The notes: generated by a model not told the origin, from the sequence alone. A stretch of 63,953 nt of DNA, filler included, from Hausera hauseri (GCA_046269625.1; 12 parts of 12 records of this genome joined end to end with filler, not necessarily neighbours in it), one strand, 5' to 3'; shown: positions 1,849 to 61,734, numbered from the whole stretch's first letter. Program-made: numbers and translations.

Positions 1849-2082
1849 GTTTTTAGTTGCCATCTATTCAGTAATATACTATTTTTGATGCTGGTTGTGA
1901 ATATGAAAAATTTTTTTGCAATGGCGCCATGATTGTTTTGAAAAAATTAAATTTCATTTTTAAAAAAAGTAACGGATTCATCAGAAATTAAATATTTTTT
2001 TAATAATGTTAAAAACTAATTTGTTTAAATATTTAATTTGTTTATGATACAATTTGATTTTTTTGTTTACATTTCTCTGTTG

Positions 2083-5603: not shown

Positions 5604-5943
5604 TTCTAACATCTCTTGTAAACCAAATATGGTGTCCGACTCTGAAATTTAATTTGTATAAAAATTCAGTCATTTTCAATTCAAAAATAGAGGGAAACTG
5701 AATAAATACCAATATTTTAAATTTGAAATATGCGTTTCGACTACACTTATGTGATAATATTATGGCTGTGATTATTAAATATACAGTCAGAAATTATATA
5801 TTGCCTGTATTTTATTGTTATTCTTTGGTAATAAAATTATCGGATTCAGCGTACTAAAGTGAGTAATTTTGTTTTGGAGTAAAATTGTTTTACTGATCCA
5901 CTAGAGCTTTTTCTCGGTGACGTTTTCAAGTGCAATCCAAGAA

Positions 5944-9939: not shown

Positions 9940-10722
9940 AGCTTTTTCGCTCTTTTCCACTCACAGACCAGTTTTATATTGATTATGTTCCTGATGTTTT
10001 CCATAGTTTTACCAAAAATGCTGTTGTTATATAGCTTGAATTAGTCCTTCGCAAAGTCGTTTTTAGCCTCGGCCCTCAATTGAGTGTTAAAATAAATGTA
10101 TGGTTGGCACCACTTGGACTCGCTGAATTGCAGGACCCGGTAGATCTTCGTGACGCAGAGCCCATTCTTCATTGCTTGCTGGAGATTAATGTATTGGGCT
10201 ACATATCTTTCCCTATTCTCCAGGTGGTAGAACGGCTTACTGTATTTTCCACTAGGCTGCTGCTTGCACTCAGGGAGGAAAGGCAGCTGTTCATCCCTCG
10301 TGTGGATGGAATGTGGATATTTAACATCCATCTCCAGTATTTAGCCCGTATTGCCATTGAGATCTACATCTTGTATTGCTAAGTCTTCCGGATGATCCAC
10401 CCATTTAAAGTTGTCATAAAGCAATGGGGTACTCATTGCCCACCAATGTAGGTTGTTGGCATTCAAGTATGTGAAATACGAGGGGGGCTTTGATTGGTCA
10501 TATTTGGCCATGTACTTGCTGTTGGCCTCAGTACATCTGTGAATCAGGATCATGTCATAATCCTTCAAAATCTCAGCCTAATACCGGTATATCGCAGCAT
10601 TGCTGCCCAACTCATCCGTGGAGCTTTGAAGAAATGAGCTGGATCCAGCCTGTGATTTGCAATTGTAACATCCCGGAAGGTTTCAAAGACATCCGTCAGC
10701 AGCAGGACATCGGTTTGTAGAT
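9940..10722 (-). pseudogene. Protein-primed DNA polymerase B fragment (Polinton/adintovirus-like)
   Basis: YLQTDVLLLTDVFETFR, LDPAHFF, YLNANNLHWWAMS (motif A), FAKD*FKLYNNSIFGKTMENIR (motif B). Confidence 0.85.
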
Positions 10723-11063
10723 ATATGATAATTCTTAAACCGAACAGAAAATTGTCTTTCAAATGAGATCTCTAATACGGTCGTTTATTACTTTGTTAGA
10801 TATCTTTGTCTTAAGCACAGCTAATGCAATTGATATGAGTTCCATCAAAGCATGATAATACAAAAGAAACAACTGACGAAAATTGATCACACAAACAAAG
10901 TCCGTTGTACAGTCTTTAATGCATTATTAGACATATTTTGTTATAAGTACAAGCTGAAGGCGACTTTGTGTGCCTACCTTTTCTGTTAAATGATGTTAAA
11001 GGCTGCTATGACCTGAACCATTTCTGTAGAAATACTAATGGAATTTATCAGTGATTGTACTGT

Positions 11064-11325
11064 AGTAGTTGGATGTGAGAACTTCGCACCAACCCCCCCC
11101 CCGGGAAGGAAGGAAGTTAATGGGAGGAGTACACGTCATCGGGGGAAGGAAAACTGGCGAATGAGACCAGGACACGTCATGGCGGGGTGAGGAAAACTGA
11201 CCAATCAGGGAGCACTGGTGGAAGGCAGCTGGTGCCAACTGGGTTTCACTATTCCCACCCCTATTAAACAAAGCATTATCTGTTGGTGCCAACTGTGTTT
11301 CACTATTCCCACCCTTATTTATAAA
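11064..11325 (+). repeat. Putative terminus (TIR) of a pPolB element
   Basis: Starts AGTAGTTGGATGTGAG. GC-rich, with CACGTCAT and CCAATCAG motifs and an internal ~35-bp duplication (11231-11266 / 11285-11320). Homologous to 53151-53400, with unrelated outer flanks. Confidence 0.65.
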
Positions 11326-11364
11326 AAAATGACAAGAAATAAATATTTATTAATATACAGGCAA

Positions 11365-11728
11365 TCAAATAGAATAATGTCCATATGCGATACTTAAGTT
11401 TTTATCAACCCAGTGTCGTTTGTCGTCGAAGGGATCCACTGCTTCCTTTTTTGAGGTGATGGTCATGAGCTGGTGGTTTTTACTGCCAATTCGCTCCTGA
11501 TGTACCGGTTTCATATGCCTGTAAGTAGTTACTGAATTGTAAGTCTGTTTGCTTGAGGTTGATGCTTTTGCACTTGAGCACTGGTTTGGATTGGGTTTTG
11601 AGGGCATATGATTTTGGACGTAAGAAAATGGCTTCTTGATACTGGACACTGCCCTTGCTCTCATCTTTGAATTTGCCAATGACAGAAGCGAAACGAGTAG
11701 AGTACAGCGGATCACTTTTATCATAGTT
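11365..11728 (-). pseudogene. C-terminus of a protein-primed DNA polymerase B
   Basis: IGKFKDESKG..IFLRPKSYAL, then a frameshift into HQLMTITSKKEAVDPFDDKRHW..AYGHYSI*. Confidence 0.85.
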
Positions 11729-12029
11729 NNNNNNNNNNNNNNNNNNNNNNNNNNNNNNNNNNNNNNNNNNNNTTAATTAATTAANNNNNNNNNNNNNNNN
11801 NNNNNNNNNNNNNNNNNNNNNNNNNNNNGCATATAAAAAGTGTTTAGCGTTATGTCAAAGTTATATTGTTACTATATAAATTTGTTATGAAATTAGTTGG
11901 TCTTATCATATATAGTAGTTACTTAGTTTTTACTTGGCCTTACCCTATATCCCACATTACTTGATCAAAAAGACAACACGATATTTCTATACAACATGTA
12001 TTGAACAAAGAATAACAATATGTTCATAA

Positions 12030-15000
12030 TTACAATAATGCCACATGCCCGTGAGGTAGTGTGTGGATTCCATCTTCAAGAATGTGCCTCTCGTCATCGA
12101 ACCAATCGAGACTTTTCTTCCGCAACGTAACTGTGTCAATTTGATGTTCCCGGGACTGGATCCTTTTCATGTCGCTGACTATGTGACTTTGCTCCCTCAA
12201 CACTCTCAAAATCTCCAAAGCCAATGTGTTTAGCTAATGTGGCTTTTTGAACTCCTTGGCCCGCTTCTTTACCTGACCACTTACATCGATGGCATACATT
12301 TTTGATCTCAGCGCCACGAAACGGGTGATAATCTTCCCATTTACCTCATCTTTAAACTTCCCGAGGACCTTCTTGTTGGTAATTGAATAATTTTGATGAT
12401 CCTCCGGATAGTCTGAGGTATCCATATATTGCACCAATTTTGCATACTTTTTAAAGACATCATCTGTGCAGATCTGGTATATGAAACTGTCCGTGTCCAT
12501 GTACATTAGCTGGAGCTCCTTGAGTGCAGGGACCATTATGTTGTAATAAAAATCATATATCAAGGTATTGGATAGATCCAATATGGACATGCCCACATAT
12601 ATAGGCTTATTGAACTCAAGTGATGTCTTGAGCATATGGATGCCCACCAGATTCTCCGTGTAGATTGTGCTGCTGTGGAAGTTGGACTTAGCGATGAGTT
12701 TCTTTGCTATCTTCCAGTCACATACCAGCTCTATGTTTATCCGGTTGCGGATTTTCTCCATAGTTTCGCCCAAGACCAAGTTGTTATACAACTTGAATTA
12801 GTCCTTTTCAAACTCGTTCTTGGCATTGGCCCTCAACTGAGTATTGAGGTCTATGTATAAATTCAACCATTTTGACTGGCTAAACTGCAGGACCCGATGA
12901 ATTCTGATGACTCAGAGTCCATTTTGGATGGCCTGTTAAAGATTGATGTAATGGACTACACACCTCTCCCTGTTTCCGAGATGGCAGAGAAGCTTCTTAT
13001 GCGTACCATTTGGTGGCTTCTTGCTCTCCGGCAGGAATGGCAGCTGCTCATGCCTTGTGTGTATGCTATGTGGATATTTCACATCCACCTCCGATATATA
13101 GCCCGTATCTGCAGTGGGATCTAGGTCCAATATTGGGATGTCGTCAGGATTCTCGACCCATTTGAAGTTATCATAGGGCAACGGGTTGCTCATTGCCCAT
13201 CCATAGAAGTTGTTGGTATCCAGATATGATATATATGTGGATTACTTTGATGGATCATAATTTGCCATGTATTTATTGTTGGCCTCACTTTATCTGTAAA
13301 TGGCCTGGCATATTCCACCCCTGCTGCCTCTCTCAACCATGAGGACCATATTGTAATCCTTCAATATCTGGAGCCTTATGCCGGTATAGCGCAGCATCGC
13401 CACCCAGCTCATTCCTGGAGGTGTAAAGAAATGGGCTGGATCTAATGTGTGGCTCTTAAGGGTCACATCCCGGAAGCTTTTAAAGACATCTGTAAGCAGC
13501 AGCACATCTGTGAGGAGATAGATATAGCAGTATTACCCTATTGTCCTGCACTAAAAGGTTTGTCATACTCTTCGGGCATGCCCATAGTCAGCATCGCTAA
13601 TATGACTAGATGACAACTGATTATAGAAGTCCTTCTTGTCCGGTAATGCTTCTTCATCCAGTGTTTCCAATAACGTTTTATAGTCACAGGGGAACACGTC
13701 TTTCCTCTTGACAAAATCAAATGCAGTGGGTAAGAACCGCTTCGTCTCATTGAGTTCTTCTGCAGGGATGTTCTTCACTAAACTATCCAGTGACGAGCTC
13801 ATGAAGCGGAAGCTGTCTATGAATCGAAGTCTAATGCGGCCCATATCCTTAGTGAAGGTGATACATTTTTCCTCACTATGTGGAATGCCATCAATGTTCC
13901 TCCAAATATTACCCAGTTTCCGAACAATAAAGTGGGAATCATAACCACTGAGATTTTGGAACACTACAGGCACATATGTACATGTTTTGCAACGTCGATT
14001 GCAGTTGTTGCATGCTGCACCTCGATATTTTCCTGTAAAATGGCTATGATCCCTGACTTTATAATTATCCTTGGTGAAGGACTTGTTGCACAAGTAACAT
14101 GTTGCCGTGCGTTATTTATCTTCCTGATGCTTCGACATGCTCATTGTATCCGTATGTTGCTAAAGCATGTTTTCAAGCCTATGAGCCATGTCTTCTAATC
14201 TCTTCATAAAATGTGCTGCTGCGTCTGGCCCTCTGAATAAAAATGGTTCATTGTCCAGTCCTTTGGCATACATACAATATGACGAGAGTTCATGATATTG
14301 GTATGCCGTTGTGCTACTATGTTGGGGATTAGGGCTGCAGCTGTGAACTGGACTGAGGATGGCCTCAAAATCACAATAGACGACAATCGGCACCTTCTGC
14401 ATCTTCTCGTACTCCTTGAATTCCAGGTAATCCTCCTTGGAAAATTCTGCTCAGATGCAATAGTTTGTATTACGGTAGGTCTTGTGCTCCTCCAGCTTTT
14501 CTGCGGATGTGTCTCCATTAAAATGGGTAAAGCATCTCTTACATATTTCCAGCCTTGATTCATGCTTGGATATTTGGGATCCTACGAGGCGCTCAAAATT
14601 CTTGATCCAGATGAAATGCCTCTTTTCTCCATCATCTGGCAGGACTAGATCCCTATAATCCTCCAATTCCTCCTTGCACACATGTAATGGATAAAATTTG
14701 TCCTCCTCCAATCCGAAGATGTTGATGGAGATGTTGTTCATGCTTTCAAATTTCACGACTTCATCTAGGCTCGGAGGAAATGAAATACAGATGAAGTCAT
14801 ATGTGTGCTGCATTTTGTCATGTATGCAAACTATGGAAGCATTATGTTGATCCTGTACTAGTTTTGACAAAATAGAATAAATGAAGCACATGCTGTCCTC
14901 ATTATAAACATTGATGCATGCCTTTTTCTTAACTATCCATTCAGGAAGCGGTATGTAGGGGCTGCCTCTCATGAGAGAATACTTATGCACATGCACAAGT

Positions 15001-15260
15001 AACCCTTTATTGTTGCTAAAGTTCAACCGCGCTTTTTGTCTTGGCTTTCTTCGGTTTCGCGGATAAGCTTTGCATAGTCTTCTGTAATAAAATCCTTAAT
15101 GTTAGAACATTTCAATAGTTACCTGTTCTTTGTCTTGTAGGCTCTATTAGACAGCTTTCCTTTGAGATTGGTGAAGGTGGCTTCCAATTTGAAGTTTACT
15201 TTAAGGGACTTCAGCTCCAACAAGTTGTCTTGGAGAATTCCTGCTGCCTGCTCCTTTGAA
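12030..15260 (-). pseudogene. Near full-length degenerate protein-primed DNA polymerase B with an endonuclease VII-like zinc domain
   Basis: GSPYIPLPEWIVKKKACINVYNED..CF; PIVVYCDFE (Exo I); CNKSF..KVRDHSHFTGKYRGAACNNCN (EndoVII); FQNLSGYDSHF; RFIDSFRFM; YLDTNNFYGWAMS; YMDTDSF (motif C); GKFKDE; LRSKMY. Confidence 0.9.
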
Positions 15261-15512
15261 TAGTCCAGGAATTCATGGAGCCATATTTGCCCCACTGCTG
15301 CTATAAAGTATCGCCGAATTTTGCTCTTCAGTGCAGCTACATCAACTGGCCCCTGTCTTTGGCTGTTGATGGAGCATCTGCTGCTACTTCTGATATGCGT
15401 TTTAGTCCTGCATCGGGCCTTGCTGCTAAATCGGGTTGTACAACTGGCTGTGCTGCCAAAGCAGGATGCAGCTTATTAAATATGACCTTCTTTGACTTTG
15501 ATGTGAAGTCAG

Positions 15513-20741: not shown

Positions 20742-23320
20742 GGAAAACTAGTCTGAGATGTTCTTCGTGTTGTTTGGGCGATGCCGATGCGACTAGTATG
20801 TCATCAATGTATGGATATGCAAATGGCAAGCCTGAAAGAAATGAATCGATGTGCTGTTGGAAAGTTTGTGCTGCGTTCTTTAAACCGAACGGCATAAATG
20901 CGTATTAGAAAAGACCAAAAGGTGTTATAATGGCCGTTTTTGGGATGTCTTCTGGTGCTACCGGTATTTGGTGGTAGGCTTTCTCGAGATCTATGGTTAA
21001 ATAAATCGTAGTCTTGTGTAAAGAATGCAATATATCTTTAATCAACGGTAGAGGATAAGCATCCATGGTTGTGACATTATTAAGTTGTCGATAGTCACCG
21101 CATGGACGGAATGTGCCATCTTCCTTTTGGACGACGTGGACTGGTGATGCCCAGGGAGATTTCGAGCGTTTTATTATTCTAGCTTGCTCGAGTGAAGAGA
21201 ATTCAGCTTGGAGTACCTGTCGACGGCATGGTGAAAGTGGGCGGAGTTTCTGCCTAATGGACCTAAGGTTTTCTGTGATGATGTGGTGAAATGTCGTGTT
21301 AGCCGGTCGAAATGCTGGGTCTTTTTTAATTGTATGGAAAGAAGACTTGATTAGATATTGCTGCATTTCTTGGCTAAGTGTAGTAAAGATTTAATTGGAA
21401 GTAGTATGAAAAATGGTAGAAATCGGGTTGTTTAAATCGGAGTTCGATAGAAAAGTAGGATGCTTACATTGGTTTTACCAGTGAAGTTTTTATTCAGATT
21501 GATTATTGGTTTCTTCGATATTGATTTTACAGTTGAGATAAGCTGCATTATCGGTTGGTTATTTGTAGGAGTCGGCTTCGTTGAATTACTTTTAATAATT
21601 CGACGTTGTCTACAATCTACAAGGAGGTTGTAGAAATATAGGAAATCAGATACAATTATTGGAGATTGTGTGTCGGCAACGATGAATATCCAATTGAAAA
21701 TATCGGAGAATGGTGGTAGAGTGAATGAGATTTTGGACGTGCCAAGAATGTGTAAAGCTTGGCCGTTGGCTATGTATAGTTTAGTTTTAAATGGTTAGAT
21801 GAGTGGTGTTTTGATGGATGGTGGTAACAAAGAAACAGCAGCCCTTGAGTCAATGAGGAGGTTGATTGGTTGATTGGGTTTCGATGTTAGGGAGGCTTTC
21901 AATGTAAACACGGCATAGATACGGCTATTTGAATGAAAGCGTTTGCCTGTGCCAGTATGTGCCGAAACATCTGGCGGTGTTGTCAGTTTTTTGGGATATT
22001 AAGATTTGTAGAGTCGGGAGGATTAAGATGGAATTGGTTAAATCGACTGGAAAACGTGCAACCGATAATGCAGTTTCGGGCTTTATTGCTAAACCTATTA
22101 TGATAAATGTAAATGATGTCAGATTTTTGGAAAGCTGGTGTAAAGAATTTGCAGCCCAAACAACATTTGTTAGATTGGTTCTTGAATTTAGTGTGGTAGT
22201 AGCATACAATATGTCGAGTAGGGGACGTGGCGGATCTAGAATTGTTCGATGAAGAACGGCTATGATTAGTTGTAAATCGTTCTCGTCGCGGCATGGATAA
22301 ATTGTCCAGTTTAGGCGTTAAAGTAGAAATGGCTTGGTGTATTGCCGTGTTTTCAGCCCTGAGGGCGTTTATTTGGTTATTCATCGCTATGATTCCTGCA
22401 CTGAGTGGTGTCATAGGCGGTTGTATTGTGGCTGCGACAATAGGAGTATGTGTGTGTTTAGTATTTTATAGCTTTTATCAGACAGTTGTGTTAACTTTTC
22501 TAACGTAGCGGTGTCTTCAACGACGGTTAGTAAGGCGCGTATTTCTTTTGGCAACGATTGGAGAAAATATCTGCGCAATAAATCAGCGTTGTTGATTTGG
22601 TTCACTCTCAACTTGTTTAATTGGGTCAAAGATGTTTGTAAAAATTCGAAGGGTTTTAGTGTGCCTATGATGTTTTCATTGAAATATTTCTGGATAATAT
22701 TATCCAGAGAAGGCTCCATGAGTTTAAGGACGGCGTTGAATAGTGTTTAATATGGGTTTACCGTCCGAAAAATTTCGGAAAGATTTGGTAGTAACGATTT
22801 AAGGTTGTTTGGTAGAAGTATTAATAGGCTATTGGCTTTAAAGAAAGAATCAGTGGTATTATTCGGTTTTAACCACTGTGCGTGAAATTCCAGCCATGTA
22901 CGGCTGGAATGTTGTTTGTCTGTGAAATAGTCGACGCAAGGGAAATTAACCAAAGAGGATGCTGCAGGAAGAGCTAAAGGAGATTGCTTTAGAGGAACAT
23001 GTATGGTAGGAACATCGGTGAGTTCCTGACGGTCGTTTAATGCAGGTTTGGTGTAGGAACCACCGAATAGGCGTGGACATAAAGTTATTATTAGGGGTGA
23101 AGGTGGGGATAGAAAGGATGATATTAGGTCGGAATAATGAAGTTGGTATCCGTTTATGCTTAGTGTGTAGCCTTTTAAGTTGATGAGATGAGATAAATCT
23201 ACGAACAAATCTGCTACCGTTACTTTAATGTGTGTTCGGTGTATGTGAATATGTTTGTTTTGGAAGAAAAGGTAAATATAGAAAAAGATGTGCGTCATTT
23301 TAGGGGTATAGTGCGCCACC
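20742..23320 (-). mobile_element. Ty3/Gypsy (CsRN1-like) retrotransposon gag-protease-RT, degenerate, with an N-terminal ubiquitin-like domain on Gag
   Basis: Gag with CYYHxxFxxxxxKC (CHCC-type) knuckles. Protease LLIDSRAAVSLLPP. RT SPWASPVHVV, FRPCGDYRQLN, KTAIITPFGLF, MPFGLKNAAQTFQ, YIDDILVAS. Confidence 0.9.
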
Positions 23321-23849
23321 AGGGACACAATCGCAAACAAAATCCCTGCGCTGTAAAGGTTGATCTGCCCAGATAGGATGGTATCTGGGACATTGGATCT
23401 GGATATTACCCTGAACATTTGATCAGTTAATTTGGAGAACGATAGATCATTTCCTTGTTGTTCGTATATTAGCTGGTTTAGCAAATGGTCTTTTAGGTTT
23501 CAGTACCTTGTTCGTAGGCTCAACGAGTAAAGAACTGAATTTGTAATACTTAATTGAATTAAGTATACTGGGGAATATTGAATGTAGTGATTGGGGTGCT
23601 CTTTTACTACGTATAACAAAATAGAAAAGAAATTATCCGACCTTTTTTACATCCTAAGTCCAGAGTGTTTGTAGAGCCTGGGATCACTGCATTTATTCGT
23701 TCAAAATCAGTATGCGAATGCCGTTGACGTTTTTGCTGTTCATCTTTTGTTTTAGCGAGATTGGTATCCGTAGAATTGTCTTGAACTTTCAAATGCAAGT
23801 CGGGTCTGTAACGCGATTCGCTCCTAGCGTTATTTACTTTATGCTGATT

Positions 23850-24680
23850 GTTTGGGAATTTTGTGTGGCGATATACAGGTGGTCCTTCGGTTCGTTTCTT
23901 TGCCAGTAGTAATTCAATGGGTGTACTTACAAGGTAAGTTATAAAATCTTTCCTATGTTTCCAATATTTGCATATGGAAGACACTGTTTTGCTAGTGGAA
24001 TCATTATTAGCTACAAAATCGTAGAGACCTGTCCACGATTCTAGCAGGTTGTTATCTTGTATGTTTGGTACGTTATCGGAGTTTTTTAACCAATGGAAAA
24101 TATTTTCGATAGATGCAGCTTTCGATCGTGATTTTGAAACCTTCGGCTTAACGTCGACATTCTCGGTCTTTTCTGACTCGTTGGGCAAACCGTCTTTTGT
24201 ATCTTTATTTATTTTATCTCTATCTGGAGTGTAATAGAGCCTTTCTTCCGTTAATTCTATTCTGAATTCATGACAACCGTCACTTTTTGTGTGATCAAGA
24301 CAATTACGCCAAGGTTTCATAGACGAGACATTTTCCAATTTCTCAAATAGTTTTTCATCGTTAGGCAAAAGGCAAGGTCTGCAATAAGTACAATATAAGA
24401 ATCTCAATTTTTTTGTAGTGCCCATGCGTACGATACCAGCTATCCGAGCGAATTCTTTAAAATTAATCATGTTATCCAGATCCAAATCGAGTAAACGGAA
24501 AACTCTCAATGAGATGAAATTGGGATATTCCCTGGGTAAAAGACATTTGAACGACTTGACGAAAGGTTCATAACCTATTTTGTAGATATCATAATATGAA
24601 CGGACAGGATCATAACTGTTCATATTTAGTGTGGGCGTCGGCGGATGTTGTGTAATAACTGGGTGCAATATAAACGCTTT
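23850..24680 (-). pseudogene. Intronless fragment of a TBC1D8/TBC1D9-like RabGAP (EF-hand and C-terminal region only)
   Basis: YDPVRSYYDIYKIGYEPF..LRVFRLLDLDLDNMINFKEF..KKLRFLY resembles the TBC1D9 EF-hand region. No TBC or GRAM domain present. Confidence 0.65.
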
Positions 24681-24689
24681 TGAGAACTA

Positions 24690-24900
24690 TTAACGATGAT
24701 TCCAATTCTTTTCGATCAAGCCATACTGCATCTCCGTAAAATTCATCCAAGTCGAGAGGCCGCATTTTCGTCATGTAGGCTCCAACGGTCTGTGGCGGGT
24801 AGTCCGGTAGCTCCTTCGGTAGTTGCAATAGTTCGGTCTGTTTGATTTCAATTGCCGGACCGTAATCGATCAACTTCACACGAATATGTCCCGCTTTTTT
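24690..24900 (-). pseudogene. Intronless extended-Tudor domain fragment (TDRD12-like)
   Basis: IRVKLIDYG..ELLQLPKELPDYPPQTV..MRPLDLD..VWLD matches the Tudor VxFxDYG..LxxLP..LPPQA pattern. Confidence 0.6.
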
Positions 24901-24949
24901 CGCTGTCTTTTGAGGGACTTTAACAAGTTCAAAACCGCCTTTGGATAAC

Positions 24950-26960
24950 CGTCTGTTTTGTGGTGTGTGATCATTGTAGTAAGAATCATTGATCAATACT
25001 GAAAAGGTGTTTTCTGCTGTACAAATGCGATAGTCGCAAATTTCCACATTTCCGGTGCACGTGTAAAATGGCAAGAGTAGTTTATAAGACTCGTCATCTG
25101 GTCGGGTGATTATAGAACCGCAAACGGCGGAATACGTCAATCTACAGAGGTAGTGTCGCCATGATCCTCTTCCGTCGATATCTTCATAGACATTCAATTT
25201 GCTCGTACATTCTTCCGTGAGATATTGTTTCAGCCATGCATCGTAGTACACGTTGTCTGAAAACAAACTACAATGTGGAACACTGATCGGTAACCGAAAT
25301 GAACATCGGTCTGTGCTCAGATCCTGTGCATTTAAAATGAAAGAGGCAACATTGGTAAAACAAGGATCACGATCAGCTTTCTGGGATTCATTGTATACTT
25401 TATTGACAGAATTACAGAAACTAATTAGTTTCTTCAATGGATTTTTTGACGACTTTTTCTTTAATTTAGCTTTTTCATACTTCTGCGAAACAGTCATACA
25501 AAACACCTCAAACTCCAACCGGAAATGCAATGGCTAACGACGAAATTTCATCGACTCAAATATTTTCAATCGCTCCAAAGAACTGCGGCAAACCGAATGC
25601 ACTTGCCTTCTTTTACGGAACAAGAGTGTAAACACGGGGCTTGGATATATCCGTTTTTCCATGGGGGCGGACGAACGCGACAGCGTGGAACAGATACGAC
25701 GGTTTGTCAATGTGATTACTGCACACGCCTTTGATCAATTCAGAAAAACTGACGAGAGCAAATCCATTGCGAATAGAAAACTGTAAATTTTCAACACGAA
25801 CTGTTCCATCAACTGCGCTTTGTTTCCTTATCGGTATCTTAATACTCTCAGCAACGGCCTTTGACTTGAGACAGTTTTCTACCAATGTCGAACACGCCTG
25901 AATGTGTTCGTCACCGCCTAATTGAAATCGATTGTCCAGCAGCAACGTATTAAGAGCTTTAGCTGCACCTTTGGACTGATCACGAGCAACATGGGCTTCA
26001 TACTTCAGTTGATTGTAATTAACGACCTCCACTGACAATTCGTTTAGGTAGAAAATGTCCCATTCGTCTGTGGGTTTGCTGTCATTGTGTTGCCGATACG
26101 ATACTGTCGATGACCCTTCAGAAGAACTCACGAAAATAACTTCAACATCTTCCTACCAACTCAGTGCACGAGCTGATTTGTCTATTGAACGACGAGGAGA
26201 TTTTATGGTAACGGCTTCAAATTCCGAAACCAATGATTCCAGAAATACACTTTCGTTCGATTTAGAATCCGAAATAATCGACGATCACATATCATAGAAA
26301 CTTCGGTAGAAATCCCCCATTGTGTATGGAGAACTGCTGTCCATGTCGGGTGAGAAATAATTCCTTTCTTCTAGACTCTTTAATTTCATTCATTAATGAA
26401 AATGATCCATCAAAATTTGAAACATTCTCCACGAAATCAGATTGAGAAACTGAAGGGAAAATACAAGGCGATGGCAAATTGTGATCGACGGACAGTTGTT
26501 CATTGATACTTTCATTTTCAACGTCCTTATAACTTAAATTGTTGGAATTAATTGGTGACATAGGAGCAGGTGGCAAAACGAATTCTTTACTCAAATTTTC
26601 TTTCTCATCAACATCTTCATGTTTCGCATGGTTTTCAAATGGAAATAACTGATTAGCCAGATTTACTTTGTGGACTTGTCCACTGTTTGGTGTTGTTTTC
26701 CGAATTTAATTGTTCGAGAAACTTCCGCTTTTTTACAGAACCTTGAATTTCTTTGAGAAAATCTTTCTTGCAAAAATCGGAACGTTTCGGCGGAGTTCTA
26801 AAAATATCTGACGTTCTTACGGCCTGCTTCTTTATGGCTTTAGTTTCAACATTAGGAATATTTAATTTATCGGATTTGGCTATCGTTGGAGGTTTGTTTG
26901 TATTCTGATTCATCAGACTCGTTTCTGACACCAATTATGGGTTTAGATTGAGATAAATAT
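24950..26960 (-). pseudogene. Intronless, degenerate anillin-like retrocopy (low-complexity N-terminus, RBD, C2/AH and PH domains)
   Basis: AAKALNT..GGDEHIQA (RBD), GTVRVENLQFSI and FRLEFEVFCM (C2), LNVYEDIDGRGSWRHYLC..PDDE..ICTAENTF (anillin PH). Interrupted by stops and frameshifts, not introns. Confidence 0.7.
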
Positions 26961-27089
26961 CCGTCTATGCAAAGCGATACTAATTCCAAAAAGAAATGTT
27001 TGATCAAAATGGTTAATAGACGAGAATCAATTTCAAAGTCTATAATTCAAAATGGGTGTTTAATATTTTTTATTCATACGCCAAAAATC

Positions 27090-27974
27090 ATTGTTTCTTT
27101 TTACCTGACTGGTTGTCAAATTCGTTTTTCTTTTGACTGTGAGACTTCATCACTCTACTAAAATCACTCTGACTTTCATCTGTATCGTCATCGTCAGCAT
27201 CATCATTGTACTGATATTTAGACTTCTCTTCTTCGTTGTCATCAGTTATTTTTGAATCCAAAAACGACTCAGCAACTCGCCAAGCAATAAGGTCCTTAAA
27301 ATTAAAATATTTTTCTTCACTAGCCAATTTCCGTTCCCGAACACTAAGAACGAGCGTTTCAACAACTTTCTGTGAATCGCTTTTCGCAACACCCTTTTTA
27401 AAATACATTGCCAGGTCTTCTTCCCAACGACTCTGAACTACGGTTTCAATGCACGTTTTGGCTTCCGCGAATATGACATTCAATTCGTCCGAAATGTAAT
27501 TATCAAATTTTTTGTCGTTAATGTACGTTAATTCCGAACAGAAATATGCTAGACTTTGTTAAGCTTTTGACAAACGTTCTCGTCAATTTCAACGGAATAT
27601 AATTTTGGGAATTGTTCCAAAAGCGGAACAGTCAGAAGTCGATTTCGTCTGAGATTAAGTTTTATCAGATTTGGTAGGAAGAGACATCGGGGCAAGTAGG
27701 AAATGGAATTGTTGTACAGATTAAGTTCGACAAGATTGTAGCAGTAATTGATGTTAATCGGCGTGATGCTTGTAAAGGAACAGTTGCTGAAATCCAGTAT
27801 TCGAACTTTGTTTAATTTATCGGTGCCCGTGTGAATGTAGATTGCGCTTTCGTTGAGTACGTTGCCTTCGACTTCACAATTGACCTTTATATTGCCCAGT
27901 ACTTCCTGATTCTTAAACTCTTGGGGTTTGTATATGTCTTCACCGTCATCATCACTATCCGGCTTCGCGGACAT
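27090..27974 (-). pseudogene. Intronless N-terminal LRR portion of an LRWD1/ORCA-like gene (WD40 region missing)
   Basis: DKLNKVRILDFS, LVELNLYNNSISYLP, LEQFPKL and later IAWRV align with my recollection of the LRWD1 N-terminus. Confidence 0.6.
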
Positions 27975-28139
27975 TTCAATAACAAGAACGTAAGTGCTAC
28001 TGAGCATCGAATAAGCCGGTCCGTCTTCTAGAGAATCACTTAGCACTAGAACTGCTAGAGCTAGATCAAATTCGGGAATATTTTCCTGATTGTACAGCCA
28101 CATTTCCGTTGTGTTATAATCCTTTTTGTCTCCCATCGT

Positions 28140-29215
28140 ACTGTGGCGGAAAGAGTAACCAGATACTCTGACAAGCTTCTTAGCTAGGTCTGTCAATACT
28201 TTTCGGTATGTAAGCAGGCCTATGTTTCCTTTAATAAGATGATAGGCCGCTTCATTGACAGTAACGTCATACGGTAAAAGTGGCTGGTGTCGATCACGTT
28301 GGGAAGGCATGAAACGACTATTAAGTGCCGATGTTTCTTGCATATATTCATGAGCTTGTTCCACGTCACTAGGACTACCTTCGAGCATTGCTTTCAGTTT
28401 TGGTAATTCTTCTCGTATTTGCACTTCAACTGCGTTACACTCGGACTTCGGCTTCATGGGATATTGATAAAGTTCTTCCTGTTGTCGTTCAGCTGCCGTT
28501 CTGATTACGTTTTCTTCGTTGTTATTCAACTGTAAATCACGTTTATCGAAGCTTGAAAATCCCCTTTGACCAAAAAAGCTACCAGCAGATATATCCGTGT
28601 ACATAAAACCTGGTGCATTCATAAGCGGGGGAAACGGAAGAGAAGAAGTAGATCCAATATTTGACGGAGATTTGTCAACATTATTTATAACAACGCTATA
28701 ATTTCTGCTTTCAGGCTCAGCTTCATCTCGATTATCTGTGTGTCTTCCCGATTCCGTAAACAATCCGAAACGTTCTATCACAGTTGTTGCACGTTCAAAT
28801 AACTTTTTCTTATTGAAAGACAATGCTAGAACGTAACGACAGACTTGAGCTGCTGCTTCATTTGTGGCCATTTCAAAATGTGTAAGACGTTGGGCACTTG
28901 GTCTAGTTTGGACATAAATCTTGCTATGCTTACGCAATAGCAAAAGGTCGTTTTTACGCTCCTCGGCACGACTTTTGTGTCGTTCAATAAGACCAATCAG
29001 ATCATGGTAGACACCCAATGGACCAAGTTGCTCAGAATATGGCTGGACTGCAGGCAATTCTGAAGCACTGTGTAAAGCAGCAGCGACTTTTCTTGCTTCC
29101 TCTCTTATCGCAGCATATTCGGTTTTATTCATTTCCGGCGGACCCCAATCGGCTGCTGGATCTTCAACATCAGAATGATCCTCAAACTGATTTCGCATCA
29201 TTCCTTCTGGATCGC
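28140..29215 (-). pseudogene. Intronless fragment of a NAB (NGFI-A-binding / MAB-10-like) corepressor with two NCD2-like domains
   Basis: LRKHSKIY..LTHFEMATNEAAAQVC..KKLFERA and LLPYDVTVNEAAYHL..LLTYRKVLTDLAKKLVRVSGY match the NCD2 pattern LSLHELTxNEAAAQ..LFxLxRQVxRExxY. Confidence 0.7.
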
Positions 29216-30446
29216 CTTTATTAATTTCAAATTTTGTTACAATTGGCTCGCCATTTTTAAGAGGACCTTGTATAAGGTATTCAAAAACATGTTCAGAAAA
29301 TTGCAATTTAACGCTTTCTCCTTTCAATCCATACTTTTTATCAAGGACATTGTGNNNNNNNNNNNNNNNNNNNNNNNNNNNNNNNNNNNNNNNNNNNNTT
29401 AATTAATTAANNNNNNNNNNNNNNNNNNNNNNNNNNNNNNNNNNNNNNNNNNNNCTGCAGATACAGTGCTAAATTTTATGAAATCTCTACACACGGTCAT
29501 TAGAAAATTCATGGTTACTTCATCGCAATGATTTGGACATAATAATTTCTTCCATCTTGCATCTTAAATTCCATCCTCTAATATGAGATGTAATGCCTTA
29601 TTTAAAGCTTGTTCTCTTTGGTCCGGATATCTTAATGCTTGAATCATATCATTTATCCCATCTCTAGTATAGAGAGTAGTTTTGGATATATCTGTAAACA
29701 TTATTTACTACTGCATGTCTTAATGCTGTCAATGTAAGTCTTTTAGGTGTCTTATGAGGCTTCATTCGTTCTGGTAATACTACCTGTTATTTTTTCCATA
29801 TAGTTTTAAAAAAGTAGAAGTAATTCCAAAAATAGAGAATGAAGCAATAAATCCAAATACAGAAAACAAAAAAATTACTAATAACCTTTTATTTAGTAAT
29901 CAACATTTCAAAAAACAATTCAATTCTAAATCGATATTTATATAGAAAATTACTCCCGTAAAAGAACATAATATAGTGAGATCAAAATCAAGTTCATCCA
30001 AGTCCGCAATATAACAATTTAACTGATAAATCAAATTTTTATGTTATTGTTTATATTCTTTGTACAGAAAATTCCAACAATTCTTTCTTCACAGATTTTA
30101 ACAGATGTATCCATTACGCGCAATGCTTGTGTTCCATCACTACCAGGATTCCATTCCAACTATTGGTGCTTGAACAACATGAAGAGAGCCGACATTATAA
30201 ATGGCTTGAGGTCCTGATAAGCCTCCTGATGTTATTGGAGCCCCACAAATGTTATTGGGTCCATGTAGAACATTATGGGGAGAGACTGAGTTGAAATTAG
30301 GTTGAGAAAAAATGGTATCAGGGGAATTGCAATTGGTCGAATTGAAATGCTCGGACGTATTGTATCCATTTTCCATCTGACCTGTGTAATAACAAAATAA
30401 TGATATTTAGCATAATTAATGGAAGAATAAAAGAATATTTCTAATA

Positions 30447-38650: not shown

Positions 38651-40079
38651 NNNNNNNNNNNNNNNNNNNNNNNNNNNNNNNNNNNNNNNNNNNNTTAATT
38701 AATTAANNNNNNNNNNNNNNNNNNNNNNNNNNNNNNNNNNNNNNNNNNNNGTTACCAAGTTACGACTGTTGAACCGGTAACTTTGGAATCCGAGTCAGAA
38801 CCAGAAGAAATTAATGAGGGTAATCCGAATCGGGAGATAATAATTGAGGAGAAATTGAGCGATCTATTATCAAACCATAGTTGATATCAAAAAACTTACC
38901 TGCCTATTTCGTGGCACACGAGGGTAATATTTTTTCACTACGCATTTTAAACTTTCTGCTCTGCACGTTAGACAGTCTTTACAAAAATTGTTTTATACTT
39001 GCATAATCTGAATTTTTCGAGTTTGTCATTTATAAGACTTATTACCGATTATCAAACATCAACGTCATTGTTGCCATTCATAAAGGAAACCTTCCGATCA
39101 AACAATGCAAAAATGCTACTAAATATCTAAGCGTACATGTTCTCGTCGATTCTGCGTAGGTTTAACGTAGCCGCAGTGGCCCCATCAAAAACAGATAAAA
39201 CAATCGCTTACCTTGTTCCCATTATACAACAAATCACGAATATACAGAAATATCTAAGTCATAAAGTATCGTACGAGTTGAAGATAATCCTCGAGGCTCA
39301 CAGCGCCATGAATTAGGTGTTGTTGAGAAAGACTGGAATCAATATGAGGTATGTGTTAAAATGCGCGTTCTTTTAATTTCAGATGAAGCTATTAGACAAA
39401 CTTCGACATCGATATATAATTCACATACATTGCTTCACGTCGATGTAACAGAAGAAACATTCGGTCGAGGATTAAATTTCCTGAGAGAGACTTTCTAAAT
39501 TCCCATTCTTACCAGCATCTAAATCCAAAACCAAAAAGACATCTGTTTGTCATTCCTACATCTTTCTGAATCTGAATGAATTCAATCCAAAGAATGCTTA
39601 TTGTTTACGCTTGGTTCTAAGTCGATATGACTGTAAGAGACCAGATTGGTTAAATGACAAAGCAGTCGACTTTCAATTTGCAAAGGAAAAGTCAAAGGGT
39701 GTGGACAAAATATATCTGCGCATAAGAGTGTATGGTGAATGCATTTTACCATCATGTCATTGACGTCATATTTCTCAACTGGAAGTTGATAAACCTGTCT
39801 TTCTGAATAAGGGTACATCAAATTTAGGATGTTATACTTTGACAGTCCGAGTCATTTCTATATCCGTGTTCTCAATCATTCTGCAGAGGGCTCTACTGAG
39901 ACATTTCAATGCAGTTATCTGCAGGTCGAATAAAAGAGAAACAGTTATTTCAGCTATCGTCATAATGTCCATAGTGTTAATGCCAAATTTATTCAACCCG
40001 GAATGATCGCTGCAATCAAATCCAAAGACGGTTTTGAACGTATTAAAGTCCACCAAAAGGCAGCAAAAAAGCGGAGACC

Positions 40080-41860
40080 TCGGTTACCCCGAAATTTTCC
40101 ACGCGCCGCGGCGAGGCTGAAGCCCTAGCCGCCCATCCTATACCATTGGGTCGGACGGCACCCTTCGTTGCCGCCCCACGACATGCCCCCGGCTACACAA
40201 CTTCTCATTTCCTATTTTTCTTAAAAAACAAACGCGTTTGCACAAATGCAGTAGCACATTTAAACACGCGGCAATCTAACTTCATCTCCACTCTGCACAC
40301 CAGAATTTTACCTCACATATTATAGCGCCACGGTATCTCTCGTTGGGAATCTGCAACCCTCTTCCATTTATATTCACCTTCACATTCACTTTTACATCCG
40401 TGGTGGCGTGGATTCACCACCTACTATTGATACCTCGGACAAACCCACCAAACCACCGGTCTCTATCACTTACTTACCCAAACAAAGTGCTTCAAACACC
40501 CCGACACAGCACACAGTCCCCATTCATTCACCCTGCACTGAATACTTCCTCGACAGCCGAAACCCCACCCAAACATGGCTAAAATTATATCAATTCCGGC
40601 TCCAATCACAAAACGTCGTCGACCCTTTATCCAAAGCCAACAGACTGATTTTTCATTTACCTGTTTCCATCAAAACTAAAATTACTAGCATTACCGACAT
40701 CCTTCACAACACCGATCCACATTCTTAACTTTATAATGCCGTGCATAAGCTCACTGAGCCGTCAATCGACTCAATCATTTAAAGATTCTTCAATGACAAC
40801 GCCATGGGCCTTCAGAAGCCCTCTGAATTATTGCGCACATCCTTGTCTTACCTCAATACCCTTGGCGTAACATCTGATCATAGTCCAGAACTTCTTCGTC
40901 TTTACTTCCTAAACGCATTGTCCCTTCAAATAAGAGCTTTGCTAACTGTGGTCAAAGACTCCACGGCACTGGAAAAGTTAGCCGAACTGGCGGACAAAGC
41001 TTATGAAGTGTTGCACTCACACAGCACCAACTGTCTCTGCGGCATTAACAACAACCACCAACAACAAAATGCATTGCTGCAGCAACAAATTGCGCAATTA
41101 CGCACAGAAAACGAAATTTTGCAAAAGACAACTAATAACATAAACTAGAAACTAAATAAGTTAACGCTGCCTCGACGAAGTTTTTCTAGGGCTGCCTCTC
41201 CTAATGTATTTTATCAACAACAAAGACGGTCGCCTTTGCCCTCGCGGTTGTCTATTTGCTACTATCACAACAAATTTGTTAACAGTGCGCAAAAATGCTG
41301 CATTGGTTGTAAATTTTACTTCCCCAATTTTAACACAAGCAACATCGTTTGCATCTATCACGCAAAATTTGGAACAAAAACACAAAAGTGCTTATCTGGC
41401 TGTAAATACAACACGTACAACAAAATCAACACCATTAAACCCACACAAAACAGTAGGCCAAACTCATCAGCTACAAAAACTGATTTCGCCGCTAGGACAC
41501 ACGGCAAGTTTTAGCAAAGGCAACAACCTATAAAAACATAGCCGACATATTTCTCTTGCTGTATTCACATTGGAAGCGGCAGTCGTCACTCAAACAAAGC
41601 AAAACATCTCTTTACTACCACCAACACAACACATCCAAAACAAATTGACTTTAAAAAAGCAACTGTTCACTGCATCTGGTGAACCTTTACAAATTTTGGT
41701 GTTACTAAATTAACTTTTACACTTCCAAATTTTCCAAACACATTCACTTGGAAATTTACAGTGGCCAATATACGCAAACCTTTATCGGATTCGGACTTTC
41801 TTTTCCACTACAATTGACTTGTAGACTGAAAACGATGTTCCTTAAGGAGCCGAAACAATT
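40080..41860 (+). mobile_element. Ty3/Gypsy (CsRN1-like) gag-protease remnant, related to 20742-23320
   Basis: CGGTTACCCCGA resembles a degenerate tRNA-Trp PBS. IRGG precedes Gag; PCTEYFLDSRNPTQTWL; IRALLTVVKDSTALEKLAELADK; two CHCC knuckles; FTWKFTVANIRKP..GSDFL protease tail. Confidence 0.8.
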
Positions 41861-42161
41861 TTAATCAAATTAGCAGCATTTCGGTAACCATCTGGGCCAT
41901 CGCTTCCAGTAAGTCAATGCGAAAGAAAAAGACTTCCGATTTAAATTATTTTTATAATCATTTATTACACAGAAATTTTTATTACGGCAACAAATACGAT
42001 GTTGCCAACTACGTGGCACTTATGACTGATAGTACAGCTGCCGACATCATCTTCAACACGAAAATCCTGCACCTAATACCACCTAATCACAACACCTTCT
42101 CTACAACTCATACCTCGACTGCAACCAGTCACGATGCATCGACACCACAATGGATTGTATA

Positions 42162-42930: not shown

Positions 42931-43301
42931 TAAAATAAATTTAGTGTTACTTAGTATGTTAGTAAGCAATTAGTCAAAGAACCATCTGGAAATACATGTT
43001 TTGTGAGGAAAATCAATCAAATATTATTTATTTATTTTGTAGACACATTATTCATAGCAAAAGTTGTCTACTTGAACACCCACGTTATCAAAGTGTACTG
43101 GATGTGTGTGCAAATGGGAGAATAAAGTATCATATAACAAAATGGATATTAATTTAGATTCTTTTAGTAATCATGGCGCGAAGGTATCCTTACAATACTC
43201 GNNNNNNNNNNNNNNNNNNNNNNNNNNNNNNNNNNNNNNNNNNNNTTAATTAATTAANNNNNNNNNNNNNNNNNNNNNNNNNNNNNNNNNNNNNNNNNNN
43301 N

Positions 43302-45600
43302 CCGTACGGCAAGGGTTGCGAAAGCGCCCAGCCGTACAGGTTATTAATATCGATGTACAACATTGATGTTGTATCATCGTCTCCACTGGTTACGTGATGC
43401 TTGTTGACAAATGTCATGACGCTACGAATACCAACATCAAATAGTCGGTACATTTCCGGGTCTTGCAACAGCTCAATTTCCCTGTCCAGTGACATTAGTA
43501 CCGGTGCCCAACTCATCCCCGGTATGGAGTAAAAGTTTCCAGGTACTGGAGCATGTACTCAAACATGCTTCTGCAGCCGAGCTCTGTCCACGCTTCTTGT
43601 GCTCTGTGGTACTCGTCCTCTGTGATTCCGATCCATTGTGGTGACAATTCATCTGTTGTCTGAAGCCGCTCGTACGACACAACAGTAATGTGGGAATATG
43701 CCTTTGCTGTGCGCAATATGCGCGGGAAATTGCGTCAGCGTTATCGGCACATCCGGTAAGGCACTTACGAGCTTTCCTAGAGACTCATTGAGGAACTGCA
43801 ATGAATCAAGAAATCGTACCTGGAACCGGTTTATGCGTGCCGATAGGGACAGGTACTTCTCTATTCTTGTTGGAATTATGGGTAATTCCCAGTGTGGAAA
43901 ACCGTTTATGGTCCATTTCAGAATATGGTGACAATTATAACCCCGGAAGTTATGAAGAATCACCGGAAGGAATGGCCGCACACGCCTTGCCAAGTTGCAC
44001 GAATTGCATGCTGCTCCGAGATATCGCCCTGTAAAATGGTCGTGATCCAGTACGAGCCGTTTCTGTGCATCAAACGGTAATATTTTGTAGCACAGGTAAC
44101 ATTCATCTGTGACTGCAAACTTCAGGGGTTCATCTTCATCTGTTCACATCAAAGGTTTATTGCTATTTCTACTGTACCAGGGTTCGATTTCAGTTTCCAC
44201 TATGGTTTGCAACTGCTGCAAGAAATCGCGTACAATATTCCATCCGTGGAAAACATAATATTAAGGTTGACTTGCAGCTTTTATTGGGACAACCAACATA
44301 ACAGCGGCAATTGGAACATGGTTTTGGTCATATGTGTTGTGCCGTGGAAAGGTAGCTTAGATATCGGCATATACTACATATGCAGTACTGTCTGTTTATA
44401 ACCAATAAGTGAACTTAATTTCCTGTTTGACGTATATGACATACATTGTGGTTCCTGACGAATTTTGCCTGCACAGAGTCATATGTTTCTCTCATGTTGT
44501 TTCCAATCTGAATTCATGAAGACATACAGGATACCATTTACACTGTGTCCGTTTTTGGAGGAAATGGTCATATTCCATGTTCAGTAGTCTGTCCAGATTT
44601 GTGACTTCAACGTAGTGGTACTTTTCTTTTTGTTTTAGTAGCAACAAATTTACTCTGCGACCATTTGGGTTCTGACTACGATATATTATATCCAGATGAG
44701 GATTTTTGTAAATTTTTTCATCCGCCGGTATTTCTACGATTGTGTTGTGCCGGAACACGTTGATTGCCAGTGTCAAATTACGCCGTTCAAAAGCCAGAAG
44801 GGATTTCAGTTTCATCGGCATCCAGCTATCATAGAAATGCAATTCGGAAAAATATTTTTGATACTGTTTTGGACGAGATGCACTATGTCTGTCCACTTCG
44901 TCATATTTGCATACCTCCAGAATACTGTAAAGAAAACAGTATTCATCATTAGTATTTTTTAAATTCACTACCTCAAGAAACTGCTTCAGAGCTGCATGTG
45001 TCGATATGAATGATCGCCTGGACAAATATATTATGTCACTCGACTTTGTTATGAGAAAGCCGAGGGATACAATTCATATAATTCGCCATCTACTACCCTT
45101 TTCCGTGTAGTTGGCGATTTTCTCCTCGACCTTTTCGCCTATGTGGACAATAAAATCATTGGCATATGGTACAGCTCGATGCGACAGGTACTATTGTTTC
45201 CTGTCACCTTCAACGTTTTCAAATTCTGCAAGTGCATAATATTGCACTTTGCCGTGTTGGTGTTGGAATTTCTCCACTTCTGATTACAACCGGTTGTGCA
45301 CATTTTGCGAAACATATCTCAGTTGCGTTGTTCTTGTTTTCGCCGACATGTTCGCTTTTAAGTCCACGTACGATCTGTTCAGATCGTACTTGACATTAAT
45401 GCGGGTTCCTGGTGTATCTATTCCTCTTGCTGTTGCTGCTCCTGCTGATCCTGCTGTTGCTTTTCTTCTTCTTGCAGCTCGGTACTGGTTCTAATGAATT
45501 TGTCCAGACTTGTTGATGCCTTACGTTTCCTACTGGTTGTTGTTGTTGTAGAATAGATGCTGCTGCTGCTGCTGCTGATTTTTGTTCATTATATTAATAT
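43302..45600 (-). pseudogene. pPolB N-terminal half with EndoVII-like domain, degenerate
   Basis: VVNLKNTNDEYCFLYSIL, DHDHFTG..CNSCN, LPVILHNFRGYNCH, RFLDSLQFL, KGIFP, LYIDINNLYGWALSQPLPY. Confidence 0.85.
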
Positions 45601-45639
45601 ATGTTTTCTTGACCACCGCTAAAATTGGTTTAAGTGCGC

Positions 45640-59830: not shown

Positions 59831-59955
59831 GAGCAGAAGGAGGATAGGCATATATNNNNNNNNNNNNNNNNNNNNNNNNNNNNNNNNNNNNNNNNNNNNT
59901 TAATTAATTAANNNNNNNNNNNNNNNNNNNNNNNNNNNNNNNNNNNNNNNNNNNN

Positions 59956-60904: not shown

Positions 60905-60931
60905 AGTCTTTATATTTGATTTATTTATTTA

Positions 60932-61681: not shown

Positions 61682-61734
61682 GATTAAATAAAATGAAATA
61701 AACAACGAAACTTTATTAATATAAATAAATTTTG

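Follow-up and report, generated by a model that had tools for sequence, protein, structure and literature searches.

A putative CsRn1-like Gypsy element with intron-lacking pieces of at least four host genes upstream of gag in Hausera hauseri

We propose that a stretch of DNA from Hausera hauseri (GCA_046269625.1) contains a decayed copy of a probably multicopy, CsRn1-like Gypsy element that carries, 5' of gag, apparently intronless fragments of four or more host genes, and that these pieces were captured stepwise by template switching of reverse transcriptase (RT). This reading, to which we assign a probability of about 0.68, is built on comparison of sequences. The window, by which we mean the whole stretch analysed (63,953 nt, filler included), consists of 12 short contigs joined by N-linkers, and the block in question occupies the minus strand of one of them, contig A (~20742-29354). 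The mosaic begins at the edge of contig A, with its 5' end and any 5' long terminal repeat (LTR) outside the sequence, and RT is cut off by the opposite edge, so neither end of the element is visible. A second, related locus lies in contig B (38751-43201, plus strand), and the features of both are collected in Table 1.

From 29354 to 23610 on the minus strand there is a row of same-strand, host-like coding pieces, mostly truncated and with little spacer, that leads into gag. The 5' to 3' order is LRWD1, an AT-rich spacer, an anillin-side stretch, anillin, half of a Tudor domain, an EF-hand piece, a 131-codon piece and a leader, followed by gag, protease (PR) and RT. Such a row had been described in the first-pass annotation of the window, and it is borne out by Pfam profile searches, PDB searches and an analysis of open frames in which P values were obtained from shuffled sequence. 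All of the cargo pieces are in sense orientation and 3'-truncated, the longest A-run is 7 with no poly(A) tail, no short-intron motif was found in the 6 kb of cargo, and no tRNA genes were found in the window. The number of parent genes is at least four (LRWD1, anillin, a Tudor gene and an EF-hand gene) rather than five or six, because the two NCD2 repeats and LRWD1, previously counted apart, belong to one gene.

The first open reading frame (ORF), judged by domain order and colinearity, is the 5' half of one flatworm-type LRWD1 (ORCA) gene without WD40, and not a chimera. Pfam finds NCD2 twice (E 1.4e-8 and 8.4e-11) and LRR_LRWD1 (E 2e-4) in this piece, which has a single frame break near 27555 and a 5' end cut by the contig edge. 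The 600-codon frame and the frame-shifted piece that follows it are colinear with residues 240-1039 of P0004, a Dicrocoelium protein of 2092 amino acids (aa; tblastn E 1.6e-86), and colinear tblastn matches were also obtained to P0006, P0008 and P0007. A HMMER search of 1.84 billion representatives gave 136 matches at E ≤0.001, 10 of them at 1e-30 or better, and the named proteins that have both NCD2 and LRR like the first ORF all come from trematodes, cestodes, monogeneans or Macrostomum, which points to a flatworm as the likely host. P0004, P0006 (Mesocestoides, UniRef name LRWD1) and P0008 (Macrostomum) have NCD2 twice, LRR and WD40, and the partial P0011 (Paragonimus) combines a single NCD2 with this LRR and WD40. 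Of the flatworm order NCD2-NCD2-LRR-WD40, the cargo has the first three parts and not WD40. In a 12-row tree the window copy, on a long branch, groups with the trematode and cestode P0004, P0006 and P0011 at 98/96 support. The first-pass annotation had taken the two NAB NCD2 repeats and the LRWD1 N-terminus for separate mRNAs fused into a 592-aa chimeric ORF; this does not hold, as the whole is colinear with single native flatworm LRWD1 proteins and the 592/600-codon ORF is LRWD1 alone. A separate NAB co-repressor parent was likewise rejected, with no NCD1 match in Pfam and both NCD2 repeats colinear with native flatworm LRWD1. The end of the piece (27558-27091) was not identified by a PDB search. 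Two metagenome-contig loci found with the LRR profile (L001 and L002; 2 of 237 stretches) were dropped as chance, and neither matched five full-length LRWD1 proteins.

Several observations concern LRWD1 itself. Two NAB NCD2 repeats before the LRR are native in flatworm LRWD1/ORCA (P0004, P0006, P0008, P0145 and P0007), neodermatans appear from the 12-row tree to carry two LRWD1 paralogues, and some flatworm LRWD1 database records are labelled DEAD-box helicase or NAB protein. A literature search found no paper linking LRWD1 with NCD2 repeats or with flatworms.

The LRWD1 cargo likely derives from spliced mRNA, as it reads through five predicted intron sites. These sites are placed where exon-like ORFs of relatives end abruptly at splice-compatible residues. 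Four unnamed close ORFs, 54-74% identical to the LRWD1 piece over the aligned stretches, match its residues 1-276 (P0001), 282-410 (P0005), 406-484 (P0015) and 519 onward into the second piece (P0009), and the contigs on which P0005 and P0015 are recorded are both 1,786 nt long. More distant ORFs from flatworms agree on these sites: P0027 extends from near 274 to near 410, P0016 has an intron that is read through between VRIL and S, and P0021 starts at that point. At all five sites, which lie near residues 274, 410, 482 and 519 and in the post-LRR piece, the window copy runs on without a break, and one contig (~88% identity) from X1, the sole public run found, crosses the residue-482 site without a large insert. 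One exon of the putative LRWD1 parent, represented by P0001, extends over 820 nt or more. The anillin AHD and PH parts are contiguous, and the evidence for intron loss covers LRWD1 only. For comparison, a gene elsewhere in the window (1850-5700, plus strand), which we take to be mitofusin-like, is present as tandem, ~95% identical, broken copies with short introns at a spacing of ~2,545 nt; its intron-like stretches are ~43-58 nt long and come about every 170-320 nt. This is somewhat sparser than the one intron in every 100-200 bp that the first-pass annotation gave.

The anillin piece matches human anillin (4xh3 residues 167-351, E 5.6e-6; 2y7b, E 3e-4; Pfam Anillin, E 0.003), and it continues in frame into a Tudor half that aligns to positions 75-117 of the Pfam TUDOR profile (E 2e-4; ESM atlas 0.94), while PDB searches gave no identification of the Tudor halves. 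The 307-codon frame at 25533-24613 is a genuine anillin-Tudor fusion, and of the two chimeric ORFs first reported (592 and 306 aa) it is the one that stands. Upstream, the AT-rich spacer is possibly the anillin 5' untranslated region, and the coding-derived stretch that follows it, whose open frames run to 93, 137 and 179 codons (shuffle P values of 0.007, 0.0006 and 0.0004), is by its position likely to be the anillin N-terminus and Rho-binding region; it had no Pfam match, and a PDB search with 26152-25616 gave no match of note. The EF-hand of the next piece had been assigned to the TBC1D8/9 C-terminus. The EF-hand itself was found, and the name depends on a presumed resemblance (in TBC1D8/9 an EF-hand lies C-terminal to the GRAM and TBC domains) that was not confirmed by the searches. 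The 131-codon piece, which is possibly a continuation of the Tudor gene, had no homologue in Pfam or in a homologue search restricted to longer lengths, and the same restricted search found no long homologue of the joint EF-hand/131-codon ORF. Four of the five joints in the anillin-to-131-codon block are in frame, for which hand arithmetic gives a chance of ~0.05, or 0.11 if the Tudor and 131-codon pieces are one gene.

These joints also bear on capture at the DNA level, by a Helitron or Pack-TIR (terminal inverted repeat) element, or on a compact host gene cluster hit by a Gypsy insertion. A stop codon, AATAAA and a spacer do separate LRWD1 from anillin, as would be expected between adjacent genes, but the predicted introns are absent, LRWD1 is without its WD40 half, the other joints are mid-domain fusions, and no terminal repeats were found. 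We consider an origin of this kind extremely improbable.

The cargo is followed by what is likely a decayed copy of a CsRn1-like Gypsy element. CsRn1-like elements are defined by a CX2HX9CX3C (CHCC) gag motif and a tRNA-Trp primer site (PMC2582038), and contig A has this motif intact at 22204 and imperfect at 22111. Shared with the CsRn1 clade (PwRn1 and AgCR; PMC2582038) are the CHCC motif, the order gag-PR-RT, YXDD and a likely flatworm host; contig B in addition has a candidate tRNA-Trp primer-binding site (PBS). Unlike what is described for that clade, the motif occurs twice and gag comes after a sizeable block of host origin, and the placement is by motifs. A gag query had no match in viral contigs. 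The leader between cargo and gag has no LTR and no tRNA-Trp PBS in the PBS scan and depth profile, and similarity to contig B begins at its gag-side end, near 23290. That no LTR is evident before gag had been noted previously, and this is upheld by the summed depth of X1 contigs, which falls going upstream, and by 24002-23610 being an open 131-codon frame. An LTR in this position was rejected on the same two grounds, although fast divergence of LTRs could hide one.

Similar mosaics near this Gypsy family, for which the first-pass annotation had advised a search, include contig B, in which a second CHCC-gag element is preceded by its own host-like cargo, including a Tudor piece that overlaps that of contig A. 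The contig B motifs are intact at 41257 and 41350. Pfam gives weak matches of the cargo to DEAD (E 0.026) and to positions 7-75 of the TUDOR profile (E 0.11), and PDB gives DEAD-box matches only at E 0.17-1.5 and no Tudor match. These matches hint at a TDRD12/Yb-like layout of a DEAD-type helicase with a single extended Tudor, a combination that is described as fitting TDRD12 or TDRD9 (PMC12147562). The two Tudor halves are complementary, the N-terminal half being in contig B and the C-terminal half in contig A, and the first 56 nt of the contig A piece overlap the contig B cargo at 87.5% nucleotide identity (blastn E 6e-12). The two gags are far more distant (44% aa by tblastx; gag core 56% nucleotide identity, with 70% in its best 56-nt window). 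Hence the same Tudor gene would have been captured twice, or swapped between distant gag lineages, because the Tudor overlap is 87.5% identical and the gag cores only 56%. The PBS-like site directly after the contig B Tudor piece is notable only for its position, as there are three such matches in 125,462 window positions and ~2 are expected by chance.

Table 1. Features of the two cargo-bearing loci, in positions of the window
Feature	Position	Strand	Evidence
Contig A: 5' part of flatworm-type LRWD1/ORCA coding sequence	27091..29354	-	Pfam, colinear tblastn
Parts of the LRWD1 piece: N-terminal domain; NCD2; NCD2; LRR; post-LRR helices	NCD2 ~28946-28767; NCD2 ~28517-28137; LRR ~27827-27576	-	
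Contig A: AT-rich spacer of ~175 nt with AATAAA, ending at ATG	26914..27090	-	sequence
Contig A: coding-derived stretch with several frame breaks	25534..26913	-	shuffle test of open frames
Contig A: anillin AHD/C2 end and first part of PH, contiguous, truncated	24947..25533	-	PDB, Pfam
Contig A: C-terminal half of extended Tudor, in frame with anillin	24658..24946	-	Pfam, ESM atlas, blastn
Contig A: EF-hand-containing host piece	24003..24657	-	Pfam EF-hand_1 E 0.004
Contig A: 131-codon open piece, in frame with EF-hand piece	23610..24002	-	shuffles P 0.0008
Contig A: leader between cargo and gag	23290..23609	-	PBS scan, X1 depth
Contig A: decayed gag, doubled CHCC motif	21986..23289	-	motif scan, tblastx
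Contig A: decayed protease region and 5' part of RT (YIDD), cut by contig edge	20743..21985	-	Pfam RVT_1 E 2e-10
Contig B: cargo of DEAD-box motif-I-like remnant, further coding pieces and N-terminal half of extended Tudor	39131..40080	+	
Contig B: tRNA-Trp PBS-like 12-mer, 2 mismatches, directly after Tudor piece	40081..40092	+	
Contig B: second gag, only distantly related and with both CHCC motifs intact, and protease region	40264..41931	+	

Further versions of the cargo are found in run X1, which contains 46% of the sampled words and from which 4,377 contigs, aligned at 80% likeness, cover 30 of 30 bins; no RNA run was listed as containing the sequence. The summed X1 depth, not to be read as a copy number, ranges between 31 and 201 across most of the cargo and falls, going upstream from gag, from thousands to 652, 281 and 116. 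Variants are common to 16, 11, 11 and 8 X1 contigs at four LRWD1 sites and to 1-5 contigs at sites in the anillin, Tudor and EF-hand pieces, and the cargo is likely multicopy, in many diverged versions, whether by dispersal or by segmental duplication. One contig (depth 92.6) joins 24002 to 24658, a 655-nt skip of the EF-hand piece with 1-nt microsimilarity at the joint and with intervening sequence that is not known, and another has an internal 180-nt deletion with 6-nt microhomology. Two frame breaks in the anillin-to-131-codon block may be private to the window copy, because they coincide with X1 length variants.

We find no support for selection on the window copy at the protein level, there being no overall excess of synonymous differences from X1. 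Among the 40 best supported of 1,196 differences, 12 of 33 in the cargo are synonymous where ~28-31% are expected (P ~0.3); within the same 40, the count is 0 of 8 in the long LRWD1 frame and 8 of 11 (6 of 9 by codon) in the anillin-to-Tudor-start block, which was chosen post hoc. Neutral divergence of 2-5% could leave the 600-codon frame open, as it stays open by chance in 15-30% of simulations at 2-3% divergence and in 4% at 5%.

The run also speaks to the concern that the block is an assembly chimera of collapsed repeat copies or the result of cDNA contamination. Contig A is short and unplaced, its sequence is multicopy, and the block is not crossed from end to end by any long read or by any one X1 contig; the pieces are nevertheless decayed and diverged, unlike fresh cDNA, X1 with its 46% of the sampled words covers every bin and supports three adjacencies, and similar chimeras occur in unrelated database records. 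An artefact is in our view very unlikely.

The database chimeras comprise three clusters of ORFs on short contigs, and their LRWD1 pieces show 60-81% identity to the window copy. P0002/P0137 consist of a gag N-terminus, the LRWD1 LRR and a tail, with the gag part matching both window gags at E 1e-6 to 1e-8; P0012/P0148 have a gag-like start, an LRWD1 with an internal deletion, a piece with an IQ motif and a similar tail; and P0003 has the same LRWD1 deletion as P0012 with a different partner and a similar tail. A similar 9-10-nt stretch is found at both ends of the deletion common to P0003 and P0012. The intronless LRWD1 copies are mutually 67-91% identical in aa (one pair 75%), compared with 48-60% to most of the exon-like ORFs (77-83% to P0009). 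Those joints that can be identified in P0002, P0003 and P0148 keep the reading frame, an observation that is biased by ORF-based detection.

These distinct chimeric ORFs (P0002, P0003 and P0012) end in frame in a similar 21-residue tail, which had no match in the window. The tail suggests a fixed switch-back site, and recalls that of the BLASTOPIA retrocopies (PMC5131818).

The existence of ORFs with gag, cargo and tail raises the question of whether the cargo of contig A is itself a separate non-autonomous LTR retrocopy, like P0002/P0148, next to which gag-pol is a tandem or nested neighbour, the intervening LTR having been lost. The 3' side of the cargo is gag-pol and its 5' side the contig edge, and P0002 and P0148 show gag 5' of LRWD1 cargo. 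Such an arrangement would also suit a window that is rich in transposon debris, the missing 5' end, and an X1 depth that is ~tenfold higher in gag than in cargo. We nonetheless regard it as unlikely: Tudor cargo stands directly before the gag leader, on the same strand, in two contigs with distant gags, no LTR remnant, polypurine tract (PPT) or shared tail is found between cargo and gag, the contig B cargo abuts the PBS-like site, and depth climbs gradually towards gag, with a contig of depth 158 spanning the cargo end.

The first-pass annotation envisaged serial template switching among co-packaged mRNAs. RNA-based capture by a Gypsy element remains the favoured part of this idea, whereas a single burst is less likely because of the diverged variants, the EF-less version, the Tudor piece before a second gag and the occurrence of LRWD1 in three other layouts. 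One reverse-transcription event that switched across all of the mRNAs, with a product later amplified and trimmed by deletions, would have a precedent in the four-gene retrocopy described in mouse (PMC5131818), the EF-less variant could be a deletion, and the intronless LRWD1 copies look monophyletic. But LRWD1 cargo is also found with other partners (the IQ piece and another piece) and in another gag context, and the upstream part of the Tudor gene lies before a different gag lineage, so further captures or recombination would be needed in any case, and we judge a single event distinctly unlikely.

For stepwise capture by a CsRn1-like element, we envisage the following. Host mRNAs and related element RNAs would be co-packaged in Gypsy particles, and a CsRn1-like lineage would capture LRWD1 mRNA by template switching, after which later rounds of replication would reshuffle LRWD1 with further mRNAs and with RNAs of the element. 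Switching close to the leader or PBS, as contig B suggests, would set the cargo upstream of gag with no LTR between them and gag unreplaced. Insertions, microhomology deletions and exchange between element lineages could then vary the cargo block, and the window copy would afterwards have decayed. The cargo was most likely copied along with the element as a passenger.

Several points weigh against this proposal. Both element ends are missing, and a single LTR pair enclosing cargo and gag-pol is only presumed; no PBS was found in contig A; and the evidence for intron loss and junction microhomology is indirect, coming from ORFs of relatives and not from parent-gene DNA. X1 bridges the anillin-Tudor joint by one contig only, with 31 nt on the short side, the joint between the 131-codon piece and the leader by one contig (that of depth 158), and the Tudor piece next to the 131-codon piece by one contig; the LRWD1-anillin joint is not bridged by any listed X1 contig, and no listed X1 piece is longer than ~500 nt. 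X1 is a single run of unspecified kind, some of its contigs may be parent exons, and other species may be the source of the ENA and Logan ORFs. No relatives were found in searches with the anillin-Tudor ORF (near its own length) and with the EF-hand ORF.

LTR-mediated capture is itself already known, and what is unusual here is cargo upstream of an unreplaced gag and the recurrence of the same genes. RT of LTR elements is described as switching onto co-packaged mRNA and back, which yields partial, sense, poly(A)-less chimeras, sometimes of several genes, that can be recopied (PMC5131818), and the mouse four-gene 'Super' retrocopy and maize Bs1 are cited by Tan et al. 2016 (PMC5131818). The pieces in contig A are likewise partial, 3'-truncated, sense and poly(A)-less, come from several parents and show further copying. 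In all of the Drosophila cases described there the cargo replaces part of the internal ORFs, whereas here ~5.7 kb lies upstream of gag, PR and the start of RT; no such replacement is seen in contig A (gag, PR and 5' RT follow) or contig B (gag and PR), although it is seen in P0002/P0137. A further difference from those retrocopies is that particular host genes turn up repeatedly, in more than one element lineage. Capture of this kind in flatworms was not described in any paper found by a literature search whose scope excluded subscription papers and supplements, and the supplements of PMC5131818 could hold cases with cargo upstream of gag. Plant elements can have additional ORFs before gag, which are rarer than 3' ones (PMC7264820), and bdelloid LTR elements capture ORF3s (PMC5408684). 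The planarian giant Gypsy elements termed Burro have host-like domains and, in one species, an upstream accessory ORF (PMC6431247). For Burro, a gag of the CCHC type and an env-like region are described, and its host-like domains (MATH, BIR, BCL2 and ankyrin) are old ones inside an ORF1 of 4,900-5,100 aa (PMC6431247), whereas here the gag is of the CHCC type and the pieces, which can still be aligned with particular host genes, precede gag in separate broken frames.

A further idea is that the cargo is selected, in that element lineages repeatedly capture or swap pieces of silencing genes (LRWD1 without WD40, and a TDRD12-like Tudor) which are kept as translated chimeric ORFs or as templates for small RNAs, in a form of counter-defence. 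The in-frame joints and the recurrence of LRWD1 and the Tudor gene are hints in this direction, but we consider it doubtful. The WD40 domain of LRWD1 is a reader of histone marks. No silencing role is known for anillin or the EF-hand gene, which are half of the cargo genes. LRWD1 is reported to help silence repeats in mouse cells (PMC9233303), Drosophila telomeric retrotransposons repeatedly capture silencing genes (TART-nxf2, PMC7785250; aub/piwi, PMC13534243), and LTR-derived retrocopies (Pxyfem) yield silencing RNAs in Plutella (PMC9674220). These cases share with ours the repeated capture of the same host genes, but there the captures are of 140-235 nt, in non-LTR elements or W-linked arrays, and are accompanied by small-RNA evidence. 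Neodermatans are described as lacking Piwi (PMC8191739), and a scenario based on piRNA is weakened if the host is a neodermatan.

Other parts of the window also contain debris of mobile elements. On the minus strand, 56950-54780 holds a Gypsy integrase piece with a possible PPT and LTR start near 55620, and is possibly another mosaic; within it, ~55370-55260, which had no Pfam match, presumably resembles an OSR1/SPAK kinase N-terminus and is fused to unrelated coding-like sequence. Directly upstream of the integrase piece, at 58371-56950 (minus strand), are three intronless ORF pieces with no Pfam matches. ORFs at 59904-61741 presumably resemble, by their motifs only, a CRESS-virus Rep helicase (plus strand) and a parvovirus NS1-like helicase (minus strand), and several decayed pieces at 10041-15472 and 43250-47026 are presumably family-B DNA polymerases of the Polinton/adintovirus type.

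If confirmed, the locus would represent an animal LTR element in which several kilobases derived from multiple host genes have gathered ahead of a gag that was not replaced, and in which cargo genes are shared with distant lineages of elements. As copies of such cargo mimic paralogues and fusion genes, they are a warning for genome annotation. Were the cargo in fact selected, it would offer a glimpse of the way in which host mRNAs are built into giant Gypsy ORFs with many domains, like those of Burro. The system may provide a tractable case for the origin of the host-like domains in giant flatworm Gypsy elements, and for the question of whether capture favours silencing or germline genes.

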